DNA of 64,000 nucleotides, from positions 2,830 to 66,829 of the forward strand of contig DDIU01000049.1 of NCBI GenBank assembly GCA_002338655.1, written 5' to 3'. Shown in pieces: positions 11,860-21,614 of the stretch. A program made the position numbers and the translations under genes. The stretch comes from Flammeovirgaceae bacterium UBA1842 (GTDB lineage: Bacteria; Bacteroidota; Bacteroidia; Cytophagales; Cyclobacteriaceae). The notes beneath the pieces are model-generated. The model did no database searches. It was not told the DNA's origin and worked only from the letters and a program-made list of their open reading frames with translations. Each line of letters starts with the position of its first letter. The first letter of the stretch is position 1.

Positions 11860-14800
11860 CTACTCTATTAAGACTCTTTGAGTTAAAATTTCATAACCAC
11901 TTCCATCATAAACTTTTATTATATATTGTCCTATAGGAAGTGTTTTTACATTAATGTCCGTTTCTTTATCGAAGAATAATTTTTGCAGGTTATTGCCGCC
12001 CATATCATATAATTCCACCGATAACCCATTTCTACCTTCTTTGTCAATGATCTTGATCAATTCACTAGTGGGGTTGGGATACATCAACAAGCCACTGGTT
12101 TCTTTATCCGTGCTTAAGATTATCAACTGGCGTACAGTTATTTTACCATCCTCAACTAATGCAGCAATAGATACTTCCTTATCTTTAACTCCTTCACCTA
12201 TAGTAATATCCAAAAAGGACTCTTCATCCATCGGGTAGCCTGGATATTGAATATCGACATTATATTCACCTGGCTTTACACCAGAAATCAAAAATTCACC
12301 ATTATCATTGGTATAAACATAATAGGCCAGATCACCAGTTCCAGATGTTCTTGATGTCCTTCTGCCCCTTCTCATAGAAACCCCAACCCTTCTTACCCGC
12401 TCTCTTGCCTCTACTCTGCCACCTGTATCATCACGTTCCTCTTCCAAATATCCAGAAAAGACCCCCACATCCCCAACTGGGTTTGTGTAGATTACAGAAA
12501 CCAGATCAAGGTCAAAGTTATTGGCCAAGAACAATGTGTCCGCCTCAGCCCAGAAAGCTGTTCTTCCAGTTGTTTGATAATATGTGGGCAGTGCACCTTG
12601 ATGTTGTACCGTATCAGCAAATCCAACGATTAGATAATCAGCCAGCACCACACTACCAAAACTAAATTCCCCGATATTATTAATATCAACCACTGCAGTA
12701 GTATCATAACCATCACTCGCTGTCACTTTTAATAAAGTCATCTCGCCCTTTGTGGCTGGATCAGTATCATTAATCAAAAGTCTACCGGTAACTGATGCGG
12801 TACCAAATGCACTTTTCAAAGCGGAGGTCAGCACTAAACTAGGCACGGCACTGTTCTTTGCTTCACAGTAGTAGATCCCTTGATTTTCCCGACTGATGGA
12901 TTCAATCACTATTTGATTTCTAGTACTATCAGTTAATATATTGTCGTTTTTAAACCATTGGTAGGTATTACCGGTGCCATCTACTACAAATGACAATGTA
13001 ATAGGACTCCCAACGGGTATTTCTTCATTCTGTGGGGTATCAACAGGAGTTTGAGCCCCCACCACCAGACCTGGAATGGAACCAATAAGCTCAAAGTCTG
13101 CAAAATCCAAATTGTTATCAGATAGGTCAATACTTGTCAGTTTGGTCAACCCGGACAAATCTGCTTGTATTTCTGAGATCTTATTGCCACTTAAATCAAC
13201 GGTTAGCAATTCATTTAGCCCATTGAAAGAAGCGGGAATAACTCCTTCAAGGTTATTATTGTTGAGGTCAAGACCAGTTACCCGATCAGTAGCTACGGTT
13301 ACGCCAAACCAAGTGCTGACATCACCCGTTTTCCAATTTGTTTTATCTGTCCAAGCATCACCATTGGTCACATCATATAAATTTACCAATGCTAAGGAAT
13401 CGGCCTCCAATGAATTTGTGCCCATACCGTCATTTAAAAATATAATTGTTGGGCCGTAGGCTCCACCCATCACAAAATCATTGTTCCCATCATTATCAAA
13501 ATCACCAAAAACAGGTTTTGAATAATCATCGGAAATACTGATTAGATCATGATCAAAGGAAAAATTAGCAGACCCATCATTAATCCATACTGAGGTATTT
13601 GAAAAATACCTCGTTGTCATTAAATCCAAGTCACCATCACCATCTAAATCAGCTAAAGAATTACTATAACTTGTACCTGTGTCCACATTCTGACCACTGT
13701 CTGTAAATAAACCTGTTCCGTCATTTAAAAATACATAACTGTATACAGTACCCCCAGTTTCATAACCATTGGAGGCAAAAACGTCAAGGTCACTATCCCC
13801 ATCTAAATTTGCCAGGCTAACATCTGAAATATTAAAATTAGTACCCGATGGGACAATAAATGACCCTAATGTCATGTCACCTGAACCACCATTAAAAACA
13901 ACCCTTAAACCCGAAGTTCCATTGGCTATTATTGCATCAATGTCAGAGTCACCATCAATATCGCCTAATTCAAACTGACTTAGATCATCGGGTGAAATAT
14001 CAACATTAGATAACTCAGCAAAAGATAAACCTCCTTGATTAATAAATGTTTTAAGAAAATAAGTAAATGAGCCAGTCCTGACTAAACTAAAAATATCAAA
14101 ATCCCCATCCTTGTCCAAATCTTCCAACTTGAAGCCTCTAACATCAAATATCCCTTGGCCAATACTAGAATTATAAGTAAAGACCCCACTCGTATTCAAC
14201 CAAATTTCCAATCCTGGGTAATTGGTGCCATCGTCTATCGCTCTTACCAAATCTAAATCTCCGTCACCATCTAAATCCTTTAATTCCTGCTGGTTACTGT
14301 CCCCATCAATTTCTTGAGAAACAGTGAAGTTTTGTCCACTTCCATCATTCAGCCAAACCCTTGAACGTCCCGCTTGAACAATATCTAAGTTACCATCCTC
14401 ATCTACATCAGCAACATCAATGTCATAGCTAGTAGAAACTAAGGCTAGATCATTTGCACTTTTCACAAACGTAAAAGACCCTTGATTTTCAAATATTGAA
14501 ATATTAGTGCCAAATACTATAAAGTCAGTATCTGCATCAGCGTCAAAATCACCAGGTATTGATTGGCCAGGGAATTCATCTCTCAATGTAAACCCACCAA
14601 GACCGTCCCCTTGCATAACATAAGTAGAGTCATTTTCATTGGAAAGTACAATATCGTCAAAATTATCATTATTGATATCTGGTGTATGCACTAAATTAGG
14701 ATATTGCCCATTTAAAATAGAGATTGGCGTTTGGGGAGTAAAAACACCGTTTCCATCATTTAAAAAGGCTGTTATTTCAGAATCTGGATAAATAGAAGTT

Positions 14801-15876
14801 GCAATTACAAAATCCATATCACCATCATTATCAAAATCTGCTTCCTTAGCTTCACCTGAATTATTTGGAAAAATAATATGACTCCCTGCATCGGTAAACG
14901 TTCCTGTGCCGTTGTTAGTAAATAGCCTAATTCCATCATTAAAAGATCCATCAGGTGCCCTAAAAACAATGTCTGAATCCATATCTCCATCAAAATCAGC
15001 TACTACCAGTGCCCGATGCTGACCAGCATAATTACCCATCAATGGTGCGCCAGGTGCAGCCACAAAATCGAGATTGTTATTAATTAACACTTGTATTTCA
15101 GTACTTTCATTTTCTATTACGATGTCAGCATCACCATCGCCATCTAAATCCGCTAATATCAAATCATGGTTCAAATATTGATAACTCGTAACAGCTTGTT
15201 TAGTAAAATTACCACTGCCACCATTTAACCAAACTGCTAACTGAGTACTTGCACCGTATGGCCCATATTGTAAAAGGATATCCAAATCGCCATCGCCATC
15301 AAAATCAGCAACCGCACTTGACGATATTATATATAAGTTTTCAGTAGTAAGTTCAGTTTGGCTGAAGGATAAGCCACCCTCATTACTGAAAATAATGGGA
15401 TTGTTGATATAAGAAATATAAACGGCATCCAAATCACCATCTTTATCCATATCCCCGACATGAATATTTTGTGGATAAGGCAAGCCCAATTGTTGCACCT
15501 GTGTGAAAAATATGGTCTGTGCTTCCGTTCGGTTTGAACTGCCTGTTATGCCACTTTTCTTGTTCTCAATACGATGCTTAAATCTGTCTTTAAACTTGGT
15601 TTCCTTTTTCTCCTGTGCACTTGCCGCACTCACCACCACACCCATGGCCAATGCCAATGCCCAGTGTTTATAGCTCATTTTCAACTTCTCCCCTGTTCTA
15701 TTACTAAAACTTTGGATTTGCTTTTCTAAGCGTTTTAGTCTTTCAACTACTGTATATCTTTTGCGATTGGTTTTTTCTTGAAAGTAGCCCTCTTCAATAC
15801 CTTTTTGAAACCTTGCAGCTAACTTAGTGTGCTTGTCTTTGAGCCTTCTGAGGAGTTGTCGATTGATGTTGTTCAT
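11860..15876 (-). CDS. T9SS cargo: 14 FG-GAP/VCBS repeats, LRR, Ig-like, carboxypeptidase-regulatory-like domains and a type A CTD
   Basis: 14 D(x)DxDGDxD-type motifs counted, LDLNNNNLEG-type LRRs, YQWFKN Ig strand and a C-terminal MYPNPTSE...YIIK...LIE. The hydrophobic signal sits at aa 67-88. Confidence 0.88.
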   Translation of the reverse strand: MNNINRQLLRRLKDKHTKLAARFQKGIEEGYFQEKTNRKRYTVVERLKRLEKQIQSFSNRTGEKLKMSYKHWALALAMGVVVSAASAQEKKETKFKDRFKHRIENKKSGITGSSNRTEAQTIFFTQVQQLGLPYPQNIHVGDMDKDGDLDAVYISYINNPIIFSNEGGLSFSQTELTTENLYIISSSAVADFDGDGDLDILLQYGPYGASTQLAVWLNGGSGNFTKQAVTSYQYLNHDLILADLDGDGDADIVIENESTEIQVLINNNLDFVAAPGAPLMGNYAGQHRALVVADFDGDMDSDIVFRAPDGSFNDGIRLFTNNGTGTFTDAGSHIIFPNNSGEAKEADFDNDGDMDFVIATSIYPDSEITAFLNDGNGVFTPQTPISILNGQYPNLVHTPDINNDNFDDIVLSNENDSTYVMQGDGLGGFTLRDEFPGQSIPGDFDADADTDFIVFGTNISIFENQGSFTFVKSANDLALVSTSYDIDVADVDEDGNLDIVQAGRSRVWLNDGSGQNFTVSQEIDGDSNQQELKDLDGDGDLDLVRAIDDGTNYPGLEIWLNTSGVFTYNSSIGQGIFDVRGFKLEDLDKDGDFDIFSLVRTGSFTYFLKTFINQGGLSFAELSNVDISPDDLSQFELGDIDGDSDIDAIIANGTSGLRVVFNGGSGDMTLGSFIVPSGTNFNISDVSLANLDGDSDLDVFASNGYETGGTVYSYVFLNDGTGLFTDSGQNVDTGTSYSNSLADLDGDGDLDLMTTRYFSNTSVWINDGSANFSFDHDLISISDDYSKPVFGDFDNDGNNDFVMGGAYGPTIIFLNDGMGTNSLEADSLALVNLYDVTNGDAWTDKTNWKTGDVSTWFGVTVATDRVTGLDLNNNNLEGVIPASFNGLNELLTVDLSGNKISEIQADLSGLTKLTSIDLSDNNLDFADFELIGSIPGLVVGAQTPVDTPQNEEIPVGSPITLSFVVDGTGNTYQWFKNDNILTDSTRNQIVIESISRENQGIYYCEAKNSAVPSLVLTSALKSAFGTASVTGRLLINDTDPATKGEMTLLKVTASDGYDTTAVVDINNIGEFSFGSVVLADYLIVGFADTVQHQGALPTYYQTTGRTAFWAEADTLFLANNFDLDLVSVIYTNPVGDVGVFSGYLEEERDDTGGRVEARERVRRVGVSMRRGRRTSRTSGTGDLAYYVYTNDNGEFLISGVKPGEYNVDIQYPGYPMDEESFLDITIGEGVKDKEVSIAALVEDGKITVRQLIILSTDKETSGLLMYPNPTSELIKIIDKEGRNGLSVELYDMGGNNLQKLFFDKETDINVKTLPIGQYIIKVYDGSGYEILTQRVLIE

Positions 15877-16961
15877 GATGAAACAGTTTCATTTTCTTTT
15901 AATTCAGGATTTGACCAAAACACCTCATCTTTTGAGATCACAGAGGTTTTGTGCATTTGCTTGGCACTATTCAGAATATTGGGCCTCAATTTGCCTGGCA
16001 ACACCTTTAAATCAAATATCTCTTCTACTGATGTCTTATATAAAATATGTCCACAAGGTTGCCCTGTAGGTATGTATATCACTGTTATCCCACATACTAT
16101 AGATTTGTCTGCAATAGGTGCTTCTTTAAAAAGCGAACTGTTAGGCCTTAACTTAGATGTGGATACAAACAAATAATCCCCAATTTTATCCATCCCCCTT
16201 ACAAACCCATTGATTTGGGTAATAATGTCATATTTGCCTGTGTTCACATTCACCTTTATCACTTCGCCTGTGGCTGAAAGCAGCATCCAGAGTGAACCGT
16301 CATACAACCTTGGAGAATGTGGTACTGGTAAATTATCCAATATAATTTCATTGGAATCCAGATCAATCAGCACCCCTCCTTTCATCATATTGTCATTCCA
16401 CGATCGGGCAGCATTACCAGAACCCAATGCAGATACGTATTTTGGTTTGTGAGTAATTGGGTCAACTGCCAAACCATTCAAATGACATCGGTCTTCAGGT
16501 TTCAGATCAGTAATGAACGAAGGCCTCCAATATTCCTGAAAACTTAAGTTTTCATCAAACAATGAAAGGCAACTGAATAGGGTATTCACTCCCATCAGGC
16601 CTTCACTTGTGTAATGAATATCGTGTAAATCCAATGTACCTGTGTGGTAAGTTACCCTTGGAATAAATAGGCTGTCATATACGTTAGGGTTAGGTGGATA
16701 ATTTTTAGCCATTCCCACAGAATTAGTGGTAATAATCAATTCATCACGGGTGGCCAACGCAAAATTCTCTCCTTTGATGGTCATTCCCATGGGCTTATCA
16801 AAATTCCTGGGCAATTGAATAAGCTGATTCTCGTCCTTGGCTGAGAAAATCACCACTTTGCCTGTTTGATAGGTGCTTATGGCAAGAGAGCATTTTAGAC
16901 CAAGTAATAACTCTGGAATATTTGGTGTATACGTGTAACTAAATGGAGGAGGTGGAGTCAT
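15873..16961 (-). CDS. TIGR03032/DUF4915 family protein
   Basis: SLAISTYQTGKVV, LDLHDI, VNTLFSCL, PEDRCHLNGLA, PHSPRLY and GFVRG signature motifs. Confidence 0.92.
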   Translation of the reverse strand: MTPPPPFSYTYTPNIPELLLGLKCSLAISTYQTGKVVIFSAKDENQLIQLPRNFDKPMGMTIKGENFALATRDELIITTNSVGMAKNYPPNPNVYDSLFIPRVTYHTGTLDLHDIHYTSEGLMGVNTLFSCLSLFDENLSFQEYWRPSFITDLKPEDRCHLNGLAVDPITHKPKYVSALGSGNAARSWNDNMMKGGVLIDLDSNEIILDNLPVPHSPRLYDGSLWMLLSATGEVIKVNVNTGKYDIITQINGFVRGMDKIGDYLFVSTSKLRPNSSLFKEAPIADKSIVCGITVIYIPTGQPCGHILYKTSVEEIFDLKVLPGKLRPNILNSAKQMHKTSVISKDEVFWSNPELKENETVSS

Positions 16962-16970
16962 AAATTCTAA

Positions 16971-17456
16971 TCAATTTCTAGTCATTGTAAATACATTTTC
17001 ACCTCCCACAGCCGATTTACGACCTCCTTCGCCATAAACTGTTCCTTCCCATATAAAAGAAAAAATCAGTGAAGCTTCCGTGATTTCATCTATTGTAATG
17101 TCAACATTTGAAGTGGTTATTACCTTGGCAGTATCATCTTTAAACGACCAAGTATCGGTGTCATTAAAAACAATAGTACCGTTGGTGGAGGTGAAGCCAT
17201 TTTCAGAAAATGTAAGAGTAAACCCAGTAAATACTTCGGTATAGTCAATGTCATCTACTTTTACAGATAAAATATTCCATTGGGTGCCCGAAGTGGCGTC
17301 ACCTACTAGTAATTTTGTAACACGTTGAACTTCCGTTTCCGGGACTGGATCACTGCCACCACTTTTGCATGAAATACTTTGAAGTGTAACGGCTAAAATA
17401 AATACTGATAAGATGGTGCGCAAAATCATAACAGAAGGGTTTAGAAAATTTAACAA
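16971..17456 (-). CDS. Putative lipoprotein (lipocalin-like), unknown function
   Basis: Hydrophobic signal ending in LQSISC. The start may be at 17429. Confidence 0.65.
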   Translation of the reverse strand: MLNFLNPSVMILRTILSVFILAVTLQSISCKSGGSDPVPETEVQRVTKLLVGDATSGTQWNILSVKVDDIDYTEVFTGFTLTFSENGFTSTNGTIVFNDTDTWSFKDDTAKVITTSNVDITIDEITEASLIFSFIWEGTVYGEGGRKSAVGGENVFTMTRN

Positions 17457-18596: not shown

Positions 18597-21500
18597 ATGC
18601 AATCGAAATATTTTTGGAACCAATGGCCTAAGGCCTACAAATATTCTTATCTACTTTTCTTGACATTATTTGTTATGGCCATGCTATGGATGGCCGTTAG
18701 CTATGTCATCGGTGTGGGCAATGTTTTAGATTGGAACATCCTCGCACAAGTGGATAAGGCAGAAATAATTGTTAAGACCTTCAAAGTTGGTCCTTTCAAC
18801 CTATCACAGTCAGTTGATAGTACCATTTTTACACAAGAATATGCCGGCACAGCCCCTGCCATAAATGTGTTTTCTTATTACTTATTCTTATTGGCGATTA
18901 CCTTAGTAGCCACCTTATTGGTGACCGTAATAAGTAACCTCACCCGATTTTGGTACTATGTAGGCATAGCCATATTTGCATTTTTTCTAGTTAGTCTAAA
19001 ACTTGAATTACTGCTGTTTTTTGGCAGTGGGCAGAAGATTGGTTTGGTCATAGCCTTGATCCTTTATTTGCCACTCTCCTTTTATTTCCAAAGTATAAAA
19101 ACCGAAACCCCGTTGATAAAACGGTTTCTTGCCTTTTTTGGTGTGGCTATCATTTTAGCTATACTTATTGGATTTGGAACAGATGTGCCACATCCTTTTT
19201 TCTATCTGAGCACCTCAATGATAGGTAGTGCTTTCTTAATTTCCCTTTTATTCATATTCGGGATAGCTCACGAAATAATTGCTTCATTTGTTTACCTACT
19301 CTATGGCAGAGTTAGTTCGCAGGGTACCAAAAATGGATTCATACATTTTATTGTCATCACCCTCTTTTATTTGGTCAATCTTACCCTAGCCTTCCTCCAC
19401 GAAACGAATATCATCGATTGGGATTTTCTATATGTAAATGTTTTCATTCTACTTATTATTTCTGCCCTTCTTGGAATTTGGGGTTTTAGGCATCGTGAGA
19501 ATCAATATGATTACATATTTAAATTTTATCCCACAGGGGCGTTGACCTTTCTTGGTCTAGGGATAGTTTGTTTTATCACTATTGCTCATCTCCAGACCAC
19601 AGGTAATGATGCAGGACTTGAGATTTTTCGTGATTTTATTCTTTATAGTCACCTTGGCTTTGGCATCATTTTCTTGCTTTACATTATTTCCAATTTTGTA
19701 TCGCTTCTCAAAAAGAACCTGCCACTATATCAGGTGCTGTATAGGCCCAATGGCATGCCATACTTTACTTTTAGGTTTGCTGGGATAATCCTTGTTGTGG
19801 CTTTTGTATTAAAATCAAACTGGCAAGTACCCGTATTTCAAGGCAAAGCCGCCTATTACAATAGTGTGGCTGATCTTCATCAATATAATGGTGAAAAACA
19901 ACTTGCCGAACGGTATTATAAGGAGGCCGCTAATTATGCCCTCTATAATCACAAATCAAACTATTCCTTGGCCGTATTGTCAGAGCGATCGGGCAATGAT
20001 GAACAAGCATTGTACAGATATAAAGAGGCCACAAAAAAATGGCCCAGTCCCCAAGCTTATGTCAACCTTTCAAATCTACATCTAAAAAATCAGCAGTTTT
20101 TTGATGCACTTTTTACCGCAAAGGAAGCGGTTAAAAAATATCCTGAAAGCCCTGAGGTATTAAACACATTAGGGTTGATATATGGGAAAACGAGCATCAT
20201 AGATTCTGCTATATACTATCTGGATAAAGCCAGTAAAATAGAGCCGGATAAAGGTGGTGCGATAAGTAATATCATGGCACTTTTAGCCAAGAATACATTT
20301 GAAATACCCGTTGACACAGTGCTTAAAGAATATCAGGTAGGAGATGATCCGATTAGCATCAATAATAAATTAGTTCTGGGTAATAAAACACAACAGTTTT
20401 TAAATATCCCCTTTAGCAAGTCCGATTCTGCACTTACCCTTGTGGATGCAAGTATTTTAGAAAATATGGCTATCAATAGTCTTTATGATAAGGATACAGC
20501 GAGTACGGAGCCAATAACCGCCTATAGTAGATACCCTTCCAATGTTGCCTTTAAAGAATCATTGGAATATGCTGCATGTCTGCAGTTATATAATAACGGG
20601 GACATCAATAATGCATTTAGAAGGCTCAACTGGCTAGCCAATACCAGTGAGCAAATGGCAGCCAAATATTTTGATGACATCGGGCTTTGGGCTCTGGAAC
20701 AAGGTGCAGCTGACGTGGCCATTGAATATTTCCAGTGGGCAAAAGATAAGGGGTATGACGATGCTGCTTTGCACCTGGCAATTGCTTTAGCTGAAAATCA
20801 AAATATCCCTCAGGCTATTCATAATTGGAATGAACTGGTTCAAGCCGATGATCCTAGCTTAAAACAAATAGCTCAAAGTATGAGCTCAGTATTGTCATTA
20901 ACCCCTTCTGAGGCCATGAGAAGGGAGGATAGCCAGTTGTATCTTTTTGAAAGATTTATGTTGAGTGCCACAGACACACTATTGTTCAATTCATTGGTAA
21001 ACCATTTTGAAGACCCGAATTATAAAGCACAGGCGATATTGGATATGGCACGAAAGCTTTGGAAACGTGATTTATCGAATTCGGCTATAGAAATATACTC
21101 CATGGCCAAAGGATTAAATATTACAGATGAGGAATTATATAATAATCTCCAGTTTTTTGAGCTTCGAATGCTTGCAGCTGATGGTAATATCAGAGGGTTA
21201 GCACAAAAAATCAATCAAGATATCGAGTTTGACACTTCACACAATCTTGAAAAGGCCTACTTTACTGGCTTAATCAATGAGGCTAATGGAGATTCAATTG
21301 CAGCTTTAATTAATTATAAATTTATATCCGATCGAAATCCATTTTATGAAGAATCAGTCATTGCTGCAGCTCGCTATTTTGGTAAGTCGGATGCATTTAA
21401 AAGCTATAATGTTTTATTAAGTGCATTGGAGATCAACCCAAGGTCTATCAAGCTATTGAAGGCTTATATTTACCAATGTGCCTTGGTTCAACAAAACACT

Positions 21501-21614
21501 TCTGCTAATATTGCCCTTGCAACATTGAAACCGTTGGTTTCCTATTCAGAATACAATATGATAGAGGCCAATTACAAAGAATTAGTAAATAAAATGAATG
21601 AAGAGTGGCCTTAA
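18597..21614 (+). CDS. Multi-pass membrane protein with C-terminal TPR repeats
   Basis: About 14 hydrophobic segments in the first ~410 aa, then helical TPR-like repeats. Confidence 0.75.
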   Translation: MQSKYFWNQWPKAYKYSYLLFLTLFVMAMLWMAVSYVIGVGNVLDWNILAQVDKAEIIVKTFKVGPFNLSQSVDSTIFTQEYAGTAPAINVFSYYLFLLAITLVATLLVTVISNLTRFWYYVGIAIFAFFLVSLKLELLLFFGSGQKIGLVIALILYLPLSFYFQSIKTETPLIKRFLAFFGVAIILAILIGFGTDVPHPFFYLSTSMIGSAFLISLLFIFGIAHEIIASFVYLLYGRVSSQGTKNGFIHFIVITLFYLVNLTLAFLHETNIIDWDFLYVNVFILLIISALLGIWGFRHRENQYDYIFKFYPTGALTFLGLGIVCFITIAHLQTTGNDAGLEIFRDFILYSHLGFGIIFLLYIISNFVSLLKKNLPLYQVLYRPNGMPYFTFRFAGIILVVAFVLKSNWQVPVFQGKAAYYNSVADLHQYNGEKQLAERYYKEAANYALYNHKSNYSLAVLSERSGNDEQALYRYKEATKKWPSPQAYVNLSNLHLKNQQFFDALFTAKEAVKKYPESPEVLNTLGLIYGKTSIIDSAIYYLDKASKIEPDKGGAISNIMALLAKNTFEIPVDTVLKEYQVGDDPISINNKLVLGNKTQQFLNIPFSKSDSALTLVDASILENMAINSLYDKDTASTEPITAYSRYPSNVAFKESLEYAACLQLYNNGDINNAFRRLNWLANTSEQMAAKYFDDIGLWALEQGAADVAIEYFQWAKDKGYDDAALHLAIALAENQNIPQAIHNWNELVQADDPSLKQIAQSMSSVLSLTPSEAMRREDSQLYLFERFMLSATDTLLFNSLVNHFEDPNYKAQAILDMARKLWKRDLSNSAIEIYSMAKGLNITDEELYNNLQFFELRMLAADGNIRGLAQKINQDIEFDTSHNLEKAYFTGLINEANGDSIAALINYKFISDRNPFYEESVIAAARYFGKSDAFKSYNVLLSALEINPRSIKLLKAYIYQCALVQQNTSANIALATLKPLVSYSEYNMIEANYKELVNKMNEEWP

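Follow-up and report, generated by a model that had tools for sequence, protein, structure and literature searches.

What does a protein devoid of a signal peptide contribute when its gene regularly precedes that of a very large secreted protein? Substrates of the type IX secretion system (T9SS) are currently described as having a signal peptide at the N-terminus and a sorting domain at the C-terminus, with no leader ahead of the former. The question is raised by a locus of Flammeovirgaceae bacterium UBA1842, located within a stretch of 64,000 nucleotides (contig DDIU01000049.1, positions 2,830 to 66,829; hereafter the window), in which a gene of the family DUF4915 (TIGR03032, PF16261) stands directly upstream of one for an FG-GAP repeat cargo with a T9SS tail. 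None of these three family designations is mentioned anywhere in the literature searched, in agreement with a preliminary description of this DNA that had termed the family uncharacterized. Based on sequence comparison, the conserved unit is one of two genes, i.e. DUF4915 and a leader-bearing cargo exported via Sec and T9SS.

Linkage and co-occurrence of DUF4915 and the leader cargo

Three co-oriented open reading frames (ORFs) on the minus strand (window positions 11860–17456) were found in the order lipoprotein, DUF4915/TIGR03032 protein and FG-GAP T9SS cargo (Table 1). Their common orientation, the 9-bp gap between the first two (16962–16970) and the ATGA overlap of stop and start codon between the latter two were re-read exactly as the preliminary description had given them. 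A DUF4915 gene followed by an FG-GAP T9SS gene was likewise found in a syntenic relative (locus L034) as well as in Ekhidna (L035), Marinoscillum (L036) and Cesiribacter (L037), the last three of which have unrelated flanks. Scanning one genome per species yielded 80 further DUF4915 loci, which were annotated locally. Here, the usual gene downstream of DUF4915 codes for an FG-GAP protein with T9SS tail in Cytophagales, Saprospiraceae, Chitinophagales, Flavobacteriales and Crocinitomicaceae, the minimal partner comprising about 435 aa with a single propeller. The suggested neighbourhood survey across Bacteroidota thus returned the FG-GAP T9SS cargo in dozens of loci with unrelated flanks.

A segment ahead of the signal peptide (the leader, see below) was used to count partners by means of a hidden Markov model (HMM). 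Of the Bacteroidia-type DUF4915 loci, 61 extend at least 1.5 kb downstream. A leader ORF is contained in 47 of these 61 and in 32 of them lies directly downstream of DUF4915; all of the leader ORFs (50 out of 50) share the strand of DUF4915. The intergenic distance varies from -8 to +256 bp, only 4 of the 32 directly adjacent pairs overlapping. The ATGA overlap is therefore not a conserved trait, and neither is the translational coupling formerly read from it. Since the genome (about 4.1 Mb) harbours a single DUF4915 gene and two leader ORFs (out of six FG-GAP ORFs), and since the pairing recurs across unrelated flanks, adjacency is far beyond chance.

Co-occurrence extends beyond adjacency. 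Within the order, 301 genomes were compared. DUF4915 was matched in 44 of them; 28 of these 44 also possess the leader and 16 do not. One further genome has the leader only, and 256 have neither. The leader is spread over 17 genera. In the single leader-only genome the hit locates at a contig end, and 10 of the 16 DUF4915-only genomes, all belonging to one family (f58), carry a higher-scoring type with long open frames (500–1038 aa). In a sample of the phylum, all four Bacteroidia-class genomes with DUF4915 also encode the leader, as does one other genome (G143). The passenger behind the leader is mostly of the FG-GAP type; in three loci (L038, L042, L044), however, He_PIG/Big_9 or cadherin-type passengers stand beside DUF4915, indicating that the leader is not tied to FG-GAP repeats but accompanies DUF4915.

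Could both genes be functionally unconnected and co-travel on one horizontally moving island? The patchy occurrence of DUF4915, including its absence from about 20 other sampled genomes of the window's own family, would agree with such a scenario, which we nevertheless regard as highly improbable: flanks differ between loci, strand agreement is complete, the leader occurs without DUF4915 in merely 1 of 29 genomes, and 8 of the 28 genomes having both genes retain them without linkage, which argues against simple hitch-hiking.

The lipoprotein gene, by contrast, does not belong to the conserved unit, as among the fetched loci jackhmmer detected a homologue only in L034, the closest relative. The formerly proposed three-gene system is accordingly reduced by one member.

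Table 1 Features of the DUF4915 locus (window coordinates)
Feature	Position	Strand	Basis and remarks
T9SS cargo, 1338 aa	11860..15876	-	Leader, signal peptide, two FG-GAP propellers (predicted), LRR, Ig, CarboxypepD_reg-like domain, type-A sorting domain
Leader ahead of signal peptide, residues 1-66	15679..15876	-	Alignment of partner N-termini, coding signature, leader HMM
Signal-peptide core and cleavage site (predicted), residues 67-87	15616..15678	-	MSYKHWALALAMGVVVSAASA↓Q; read from sequence; A-Q conserved in alignment A2
14 FG-GAP blades with DxDxDG-type loops, residues ~140-800	13477..15459	-	Pfam and loop spacing
Leucine-rich repeats (LRR_8), residues 866-923	13108..13281	-	Pfam
Ig-like domain (Ig_2), residues 947-1011	12844..13038	-	Pfam
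T9SS type-A C-terminal sorting domain, residues 1265-1336	11869..12084	-	Por_Secre_tail PF18962 (6.6e-09); TIGR04183 (37.4 bits, cut-off 23)
ATGA stop/start overlap, DUF4915/cargo	15873..15876	-	Read from sequence
DUF4915/TIGR03032 protein, 362 aa	15873..16961	-	Pfam and NCBIfam above cut-off; predicted six-bladed beta-propeller
Small lipoprotein gene	16971..17456 (likely start 17429)	-	9 bp upstream of DUF4915; lineage-specific neighbour

The cargo and its leader

Pfam matches of the cargo comprise 10 FG-GAP_3 stretches and a CarboxypepD_reg-like domain in addition to the repeats and domains listed in Table 1. The earlier characterization as a large secreted protein rich in Asp-based loops holds: 14 Asp-rich loops with a spacing of about 50 residues were located between residues 142 and 800, a number and spacing that would fit two seven-bladed propellers. 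Of the T9SS machinery, two PorP/SprF genes were found on another contig of the same genome (C25).

The hydrophobic core and a predicted cleavage site, ASA↓Q, are placed at residues 67–88 and are preceded by a leader of 66 residues (MNNINRQLLRRLKDKHTKLAARFQKGIEEGYFQEKTNRKRYTVVERLKRLEKQIQSFSNRTGEKLK, then MSYKHWALALAMGVVVSAASA↓Q). The leader contains 19 Lys and Arg versus 7 Asp and Glu residues, no Pro and a conserved G-x-F in its middle. All DUF4915 partners examined in Bacteroidia-type loci share this architecture, i.e. a basic segment of about 55–75 residues that leads into a short hydrophobic core with an AxA↓Q site behind it. The leader-type N-termini of 45 partner ORFs could be aligned, 32 of which form alignment A2; the consensus of the leader reads x-Y-x-K-L-x-x-R-L-x-K-x(4)-G-x-F-x(6)-K-x(3)-L-x-x-R-L-x-R-L, and the A and Q of the cleavage site are conserved in at least 90 % of the sequences of A2. 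Gln at position +1 fits the Q-rule for signal peptidase I substrates of Bacteroidetes (PMC5837995, PMC10653852); therefore, the leader is expected to be removed together with the signal peptide and to be present only before and during Sec export.

Might translation start only at M67, rendering the leader an artefact of annotation? Against the 78 %-identical relative (L034), differences in the leader region distribute as 22/13/40 over the three codon positions, and 23 of 47 changed codons are synonymous. This coding pattern of substitution, together with conservation of the upstream 66 codons as protein in dozens of loci, led us to reject M67 and to accept the start at the ATGA overlap as real.

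No model of Pfam or NCBIfam matched residues 1–66, and the model of the extended signal peptide region (ESPR, PF13018) gave no match to the cargo in the Pfam scan (E≤0.01). The Tat motif S/T-R-R-x-F-L-K is absent ahead of the core, the sequence at this position (EKLKMSYKHWALALAM) having no RR beside the core. When the leader region alone served as query of a word-based homologue search, only a 93 %-identical orthologue was returned. Judging from composition (no Pro, 19 Lys and Arg, central G-x-F), the leader may adopt the shape of a helical hairpin. Taken together, sequence comparison reveals that T9SS cargo can carry, ahead of its signal peptide, an element not catalogued before.

Alternatively, the N-terminal extension and the hydrophobic segment might form an uncleaved signal anchor, turning the cargo into an integrin-like membrane protein that signals via DUF4915. 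The integrin-alpha-like passenger and a basic N-terminal domain that would face the cytoplasm lend this idea some appeal. It is very unlikely, however, in view of the shortness of the hydrophobic core (about 16 residues), the near-invariant AxA↓Q signal peptidase site following it, and the T9SS sorting domain at the C-terminus, since a protein bearing it has to be released into the periplasm.

A different leader of about 75 residues precedes the signal peptide of FG-GAP T9SS proteins (about 1030–1060 aa) in four Balneolales-like loci (L025–L028). Its motif, R-S-L-(F/Y)-x-W-x-S-(K/R)-V-T-G-x-x-A-C-W-(V/I)-E-G, includes a conserved Cys-Trp; homology with the Bacteroidia leader was tried and rejected (hhalign probability 2.6 %). 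In genome G143, the leader FG-GAP protein (L127, 8306–9715) ends in a hydrophobic PTMGQWGLIILNLLFVIFG tail, not in a T9SS domain, and its gene is convergent with one coding for a 387-aa GNAT protein (L127, 9725–10888).

The DUF4915 protein

Assignment of the 362-aa protein is unambiguous: PF16261 was matched with E=1.6e-101 and 340 bits (cut-off 35) over model positions 2–316 of 316, and TIGR03032 with 327 bits (cut-off 251.5). The family motifs EDRCHLNG and PHSPR occupy residues 156–163 and 214–218, respectively. The closest homologues, with up to 78 % identity, carry the source names Fulvivirga, Ekhidna, Marinoscillum and those of other marine Cytophagales. Distribution within the phylum is patchy, with matches (E≤0.001) in 24 of 401 sampled genomes, 10 of them full-length. 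An exhaustive search returned 2,604 clusters (50 % identity) at E≤0.001 and 654 at E≤1e-30, with source names from several phyla; members of the main clade named for several phyla display a mutual identity of 61–67 %.

The AlphaFold2 model is all-beta with 24 core strands (predicted local distance difference test, pLDDT, 94.6; predicted template modelling score, pTM, 0.92), and these strands can be assigned to six four-stranded blades, predicting a six-bladed beta-propeller. The protein looks cytoplasmic and lacks a signal peptide. The latter feature had been pointed out before and withstands scrutiny of the model, in which the conserved N-terminus belongs to the fold. In an alignment of 72 family members with identities down to 31 %, 27 residues are invariant, among them D96, H113, C159, H160, N162, G163, P214, H215, P217, E314 and several Arg. 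By topological assignment rather than by coordinates, 24 of these 27 fall into A-B or C-D loops and would thus lie on one face of the propeller.

This pattern is what one might expect if DUF4915 were a modifying enzyme itself, altering the cargo before export (e.g. Asp/Asn of the Ca-binding loops) at a metal- or Cys/His-dependent site on the central face of the propeller, with fused or neighbouring glycosyltransferases, GNAT proteins and sulfotransferases adding further decorations. Such an activity is the main rival of the role that we favour below and, though rather unlikely, gains from the extreme conservation of the family: H113, C159, H160, H215, D96, E314 and several Arg persist on one face among sequences of only 31 % identity, identity across phyla is very high within the main clade, and most Bacteroidia loci consist of DUF4915 and cargo with no other enzyme. 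On the other side, no likeness to known enzymes emerged. A profile search against PDB sequences gave nothing significant (best E 0.28), Foldseek found generic six-bladed propellers (peptide-binding Kelch and YWTD) as best matches, with a template modelling score (TM) of about 0.5 and an identity of at most 12 %, and a relaxed Pfam scan of the 72 members returned only sporadic PQQ_2/BamB-like noise. A fold search against viral models likewise yielded generic propellers only, and no cofactor motif was recognized in DUF4915.

Enzyme partners, fusions and occurrence in other phyla

The preliminary description had stated that DUF4915 often occurs near FG-GAP proteins and modifying enzymes. This proved correct, the enzymes encountered being GT41 glycosyltransferases, GNAT proteins, acyl carrier protein (ACP) with cytochrome P450 (P450), and fusions of a hydroxylase and a sulfotransferase. 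GT41 was found in related loci L025–L029, L038, L042, L044 and L055, and GNAT genes or domains at L029, L032, L053 and L071. Balneolales-like operons are arranged in the order FG-GAP T9SS protein, mini-protein, TPR-GT41 and DUF4915. Another cassette, consisting of DUF4915, ACP, P450, two 161-aa proteins and a second ACP, recurs in eight loci, seven of which also contain a leader cargo; none was seen in the eighth (L050).

A related set exists in the genome studied here. Its second leader cargo, located outside the window on contig C25 (L126, 5832–13718), is a 1388-aa protein with FG-GAP repeats, Big_9 domain and type-B CHU_C tail, and is followed by a PorP/SprF gene. Upstream of it are genes for an ACP, a P450, GNAT-fold proteins of 164 and 161 aa and a second ACP, with no DUF4915; this locus is syntenic with those in which DUF4915 heads the cassette (L039 and others). 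The model of the 161-aa family (pLDDT 89.5) displays a GNAT fold with protein N-terminal acetyltransferases as best matches, and Pfam provides a weak GNAT match (best E 0.0011). An HlyC-like nature of this family was considered and rejected, as there was no Pfam match to HlyC/TAAT and the GNAT fold is generic.

All 10 long DUF4915 proteins scanned turned out to be fusions, with DUF4915 at either end: three with GNAT, two with GT2, three with TPR-GT41 and two with Asp/Asn hydroxylase plus sulfotransferase. A domain joined to four catalytic classes, and in both orders, more typically serves in recruitment than as the modifying enzyme itself. The same partners could also be taken to mean that DUF4915 acts on a small molecule (sugar nucleotide, acyl carrier or sulfated precursor) for decoration of envelope or glycans, with the cargo linked to it merely through a shared surface-decoration island. 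We consider this improbable. Fusion to, or vicinity of, GT2, GT41, sulfotransferase and ACP/P450 would be explained; in the window, however, as in about half of the Bacteroidia loci, the cargo gene is the sole conserved neighbour, lying on the same strand and usually directly downstream with no sugar or lipid genes, and co-occurrence with a cleaved leader existing only in the cytoplasm would have no obvious meaning.

In cyanobacteria, the neighbours of DUF4915 are RTX-type repeat proteins with neither signal peptide nor leader. Across phyla and export routes, the constant theme thus appears to be DUF4915 beside an exported, Asp-rich, Ca-binding repeat protein, while tailoring enzymes and type of leader vary.

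Two further observations concern these partners. The mini-proteins encoded between FG-GAP T9SS and GT41 genes (L026, 12614–12886; L027, 6901–7368; L028, 5236–5487) have a signal peptide, and their hydrophobic Lys-rich tail (PGLPGAPDQAPIDGGLG...) resembles a PID-CTERM-type sorting peptide. Downstream of DUF4915 in Nostoc (L111, L113, L114, L116), a repeat of the type E-F-x-V-N-T-Y-T-x(3)-Q-x-x-P-x-V-A-x-D-x-x-G-D-F-V-x-x-W was detected, which is shared between giant cyanobacterial RTX-type proteins and leader-bearing T9SS passengers of Cytophagales (L038, L042) and which in Pfam produced only a weak GH43-like match.

A proposed role before export

Gene linkage and co-occurrence across genomes were observed, as were a leader that is both conserved and coding, a propeller model of DUF4915 and its fusions to other domains. 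The most economical reading is that DUF4915 plays a role before export, as the preliminary description had proposed in part: a step in the cytoplasm prior to Sec and T9SS finds support, with modification, folding and chaperoning still alternatives to each other. In the specific form of this reading, DUF4915 would act in the cytoplasm before export, capturing the cargo and either holding it or presenting it for modification, a view that we prefer while judging the chances of its being right or wrong to be about balanced.

From this we infer binding, a delay of export and chemistry of some kind, which may be arranged as follows. The leader would delay entry into Sec and/or dock the nascent cargo. 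The invariant, Arg/His/Cys-rich face of DUF4915 could then capture the unfolded Asp-rich propeller repeats, keeping the cargo export-competent and open to tailoring enzymes. Candidates for the latter in this genome would be only the ACP, P450 and GNAT-fold proteins encoded on contig C25 next to the second leader cargo. GT41, GT2, GNAT or hydroxylase-sulfotransferase, encoded beside DUF4915 or fused to it, might serve in other lineages. Leader and signal peptide would subsequently be cut off together at ASA↓Q, and the C-terminal domain would carry the cargo through the T9SS. Presence of the leader on the examined Sec-exported partners and not on those of the RTX type fits a device that prolongs the dwell time of Sec substrates in the cytoplasm or docks them there.

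Several points weigh against this role. Contact of DUF4915 with leader or cargo would have to be deduced from gene context, and the significance of their co-occurrence in the 301 genomes (Fisher p=5e-27) was calculated with kinship ignored. Most Bacteroidia loci, including that of the window, have no modifying enzyme adjoining DUF4915. Conservation is uneven, with 27 invariant residues in DUF4915 versus none in the leader, which would better suit an enzyme or a binder of small ligands than a reader of variable peptides. As the RTX-type partners of cyanobacteria are leaderless, the leader is not a universal ligand of DUF4915. Finally, genome G143 encodes a leader FG-GAP protein with no DUF4915 detected.

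A bolder version of the pre-export role can be put forward tentatively as possible, though doubtful, namely a leader-guided tailoring route: the leader would mark T9SS cargoes for capture by DUF4915, interchangeable enzymes of acyl, glycosyl, sulfo or hydroxyl transfer would decorate them, and leader and signal peptide would be cut together. If true, this would amount to a logic akin to that of ribosomally synthesized and post-translationally modified peptides (RiPPs) acting on large adhesins, and would place a new checkpoint ahead of Sec and T9SS. Irrespective of this version, DUF4915/TIGR03032 is a large family whose context, as found here, is a partnership in the cytoplasm with exported Ca-binding repeat proteins. 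Should the pre-export role hold, a cytoplasmic step of quality control or tailoring would be added to the T9SS pathway, and four classes of protein-modifying enzymes would be linked to one substrate-handling domain.

Comparison with known systems

A precedent in terms of gene arrangement is HMW1C/NGT, a GT41 enzyme of Haemophilus influenzae, which is a cytoplasmic protein encoded beside the large secreted adhesin HMW1 and acts on it prior to export (PMC3983070). Both systems have a dedicated cytoplasmic gene next to that of a large secreted adhesin-like protein, and GT41 neighbours or fuses with DUF4915 in other lineages. They differ in that the window locus has no GT41, in the fold (propeller in DUF4915 versus the GT-B enzyme) and in the route of export (Sec and T9SS versus two-partner secretion).

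Proteins of type V secretion systems may carry an ESPR (PF13018) ahead of the Sec signal peptide, a segment thought to slow or control translocation across the inner membrane (PMC8151025). The leader resembles it in being an additional conserved segment, in preceding an otherwise normal Sec signal peptide and in occurring on surface proteins of very large size. In contrast to the ESPR (about 25 residues), it comprises about 60 residues, is basic and probably helical, resides on T9SS cargo and has a specific cytoplasmic partner.

HlyC-type acyltransferases activate RTX protoxins using acyl-ACP. The arrangement on contig C25, where the second leader cargo stands beside two ACPs, a P450 and two small GNAT-fold proteins, would by analogy suit acylation in the cytoplasm; the Pfam match to HlyC/TAAT is missing, the folds are N-terminal acetyltransferase-like, and the genes lie outside the window locus.

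The present system resembles leader-dependent tailoring of RiPPs and the signal-peptide-binding TorD/DmsD chaperones of Tat substrates in having an N-terminal leader, predicted to be cleaved off and to exist only before export, alongside a dedicated partner in the cytoplasm and tailoring enzymes that vary. Unlike in RiPPs, tailoring would concern a protein (400 to more than 2000 residues) rather than a peptide, and there is no PqqD-like recognition element; unlike Tat substrates of TorD/DmsD, the leader cargo has no twin-arginine motif beside its hydrophobic core.

Kelch domains use Arg-rich faces to bind short acidic peptide motifs. Kelch adaptors (Keap1, KLHL3) are six-bladed propellers, and Kelch folds are among the best matches of DUF4915. 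As the match is generic and no relationship is detectable at the sequence level, the comparison may serve as an analogy for a possible mode of binding.

Lipoprotein gene and flanking regions

The lipoprotein ORF (Table 1) would code for 161 aa if its TTG start were used. The ATG at 17429 is the more likely start, giving MILRTILSVFILAVTLQSISC with a lipoprotein-type signal. No family of Pfam or NCBIfam was matched. In Crocinitomicaceae/Cryomorphaceae-type loci (L103, L104, L109, L118), lipoproteins of about 115–156 aa are encoded 41–51 bp upstream of a divergent DUF4915 gene, with two of them in tandem at L118; none of the four loci has an FG-GAP partner downstream of DUF4915. Comparison of the window lipoprotein with these small lipoproteins was not significant (hhalign probability 0.85 %).

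A scan for promoters and terminators between 11500 and 17800 gave counts equal to the level of shuffled sequence and was uninformative. No GT41 gene is present among the ORFs flanking the window operon, and housekeeping genes occupy the corresponding positions in the syntenic L034. Further upstream of the operon, a 1005-aa ORF was found on the plus strand (18597–21614), with a 1000-aa counterpart in L034 for which no Pfam family is recorded; GatC-like and glycine-cleavage-T-like genes flank the 1005-aa ORF.

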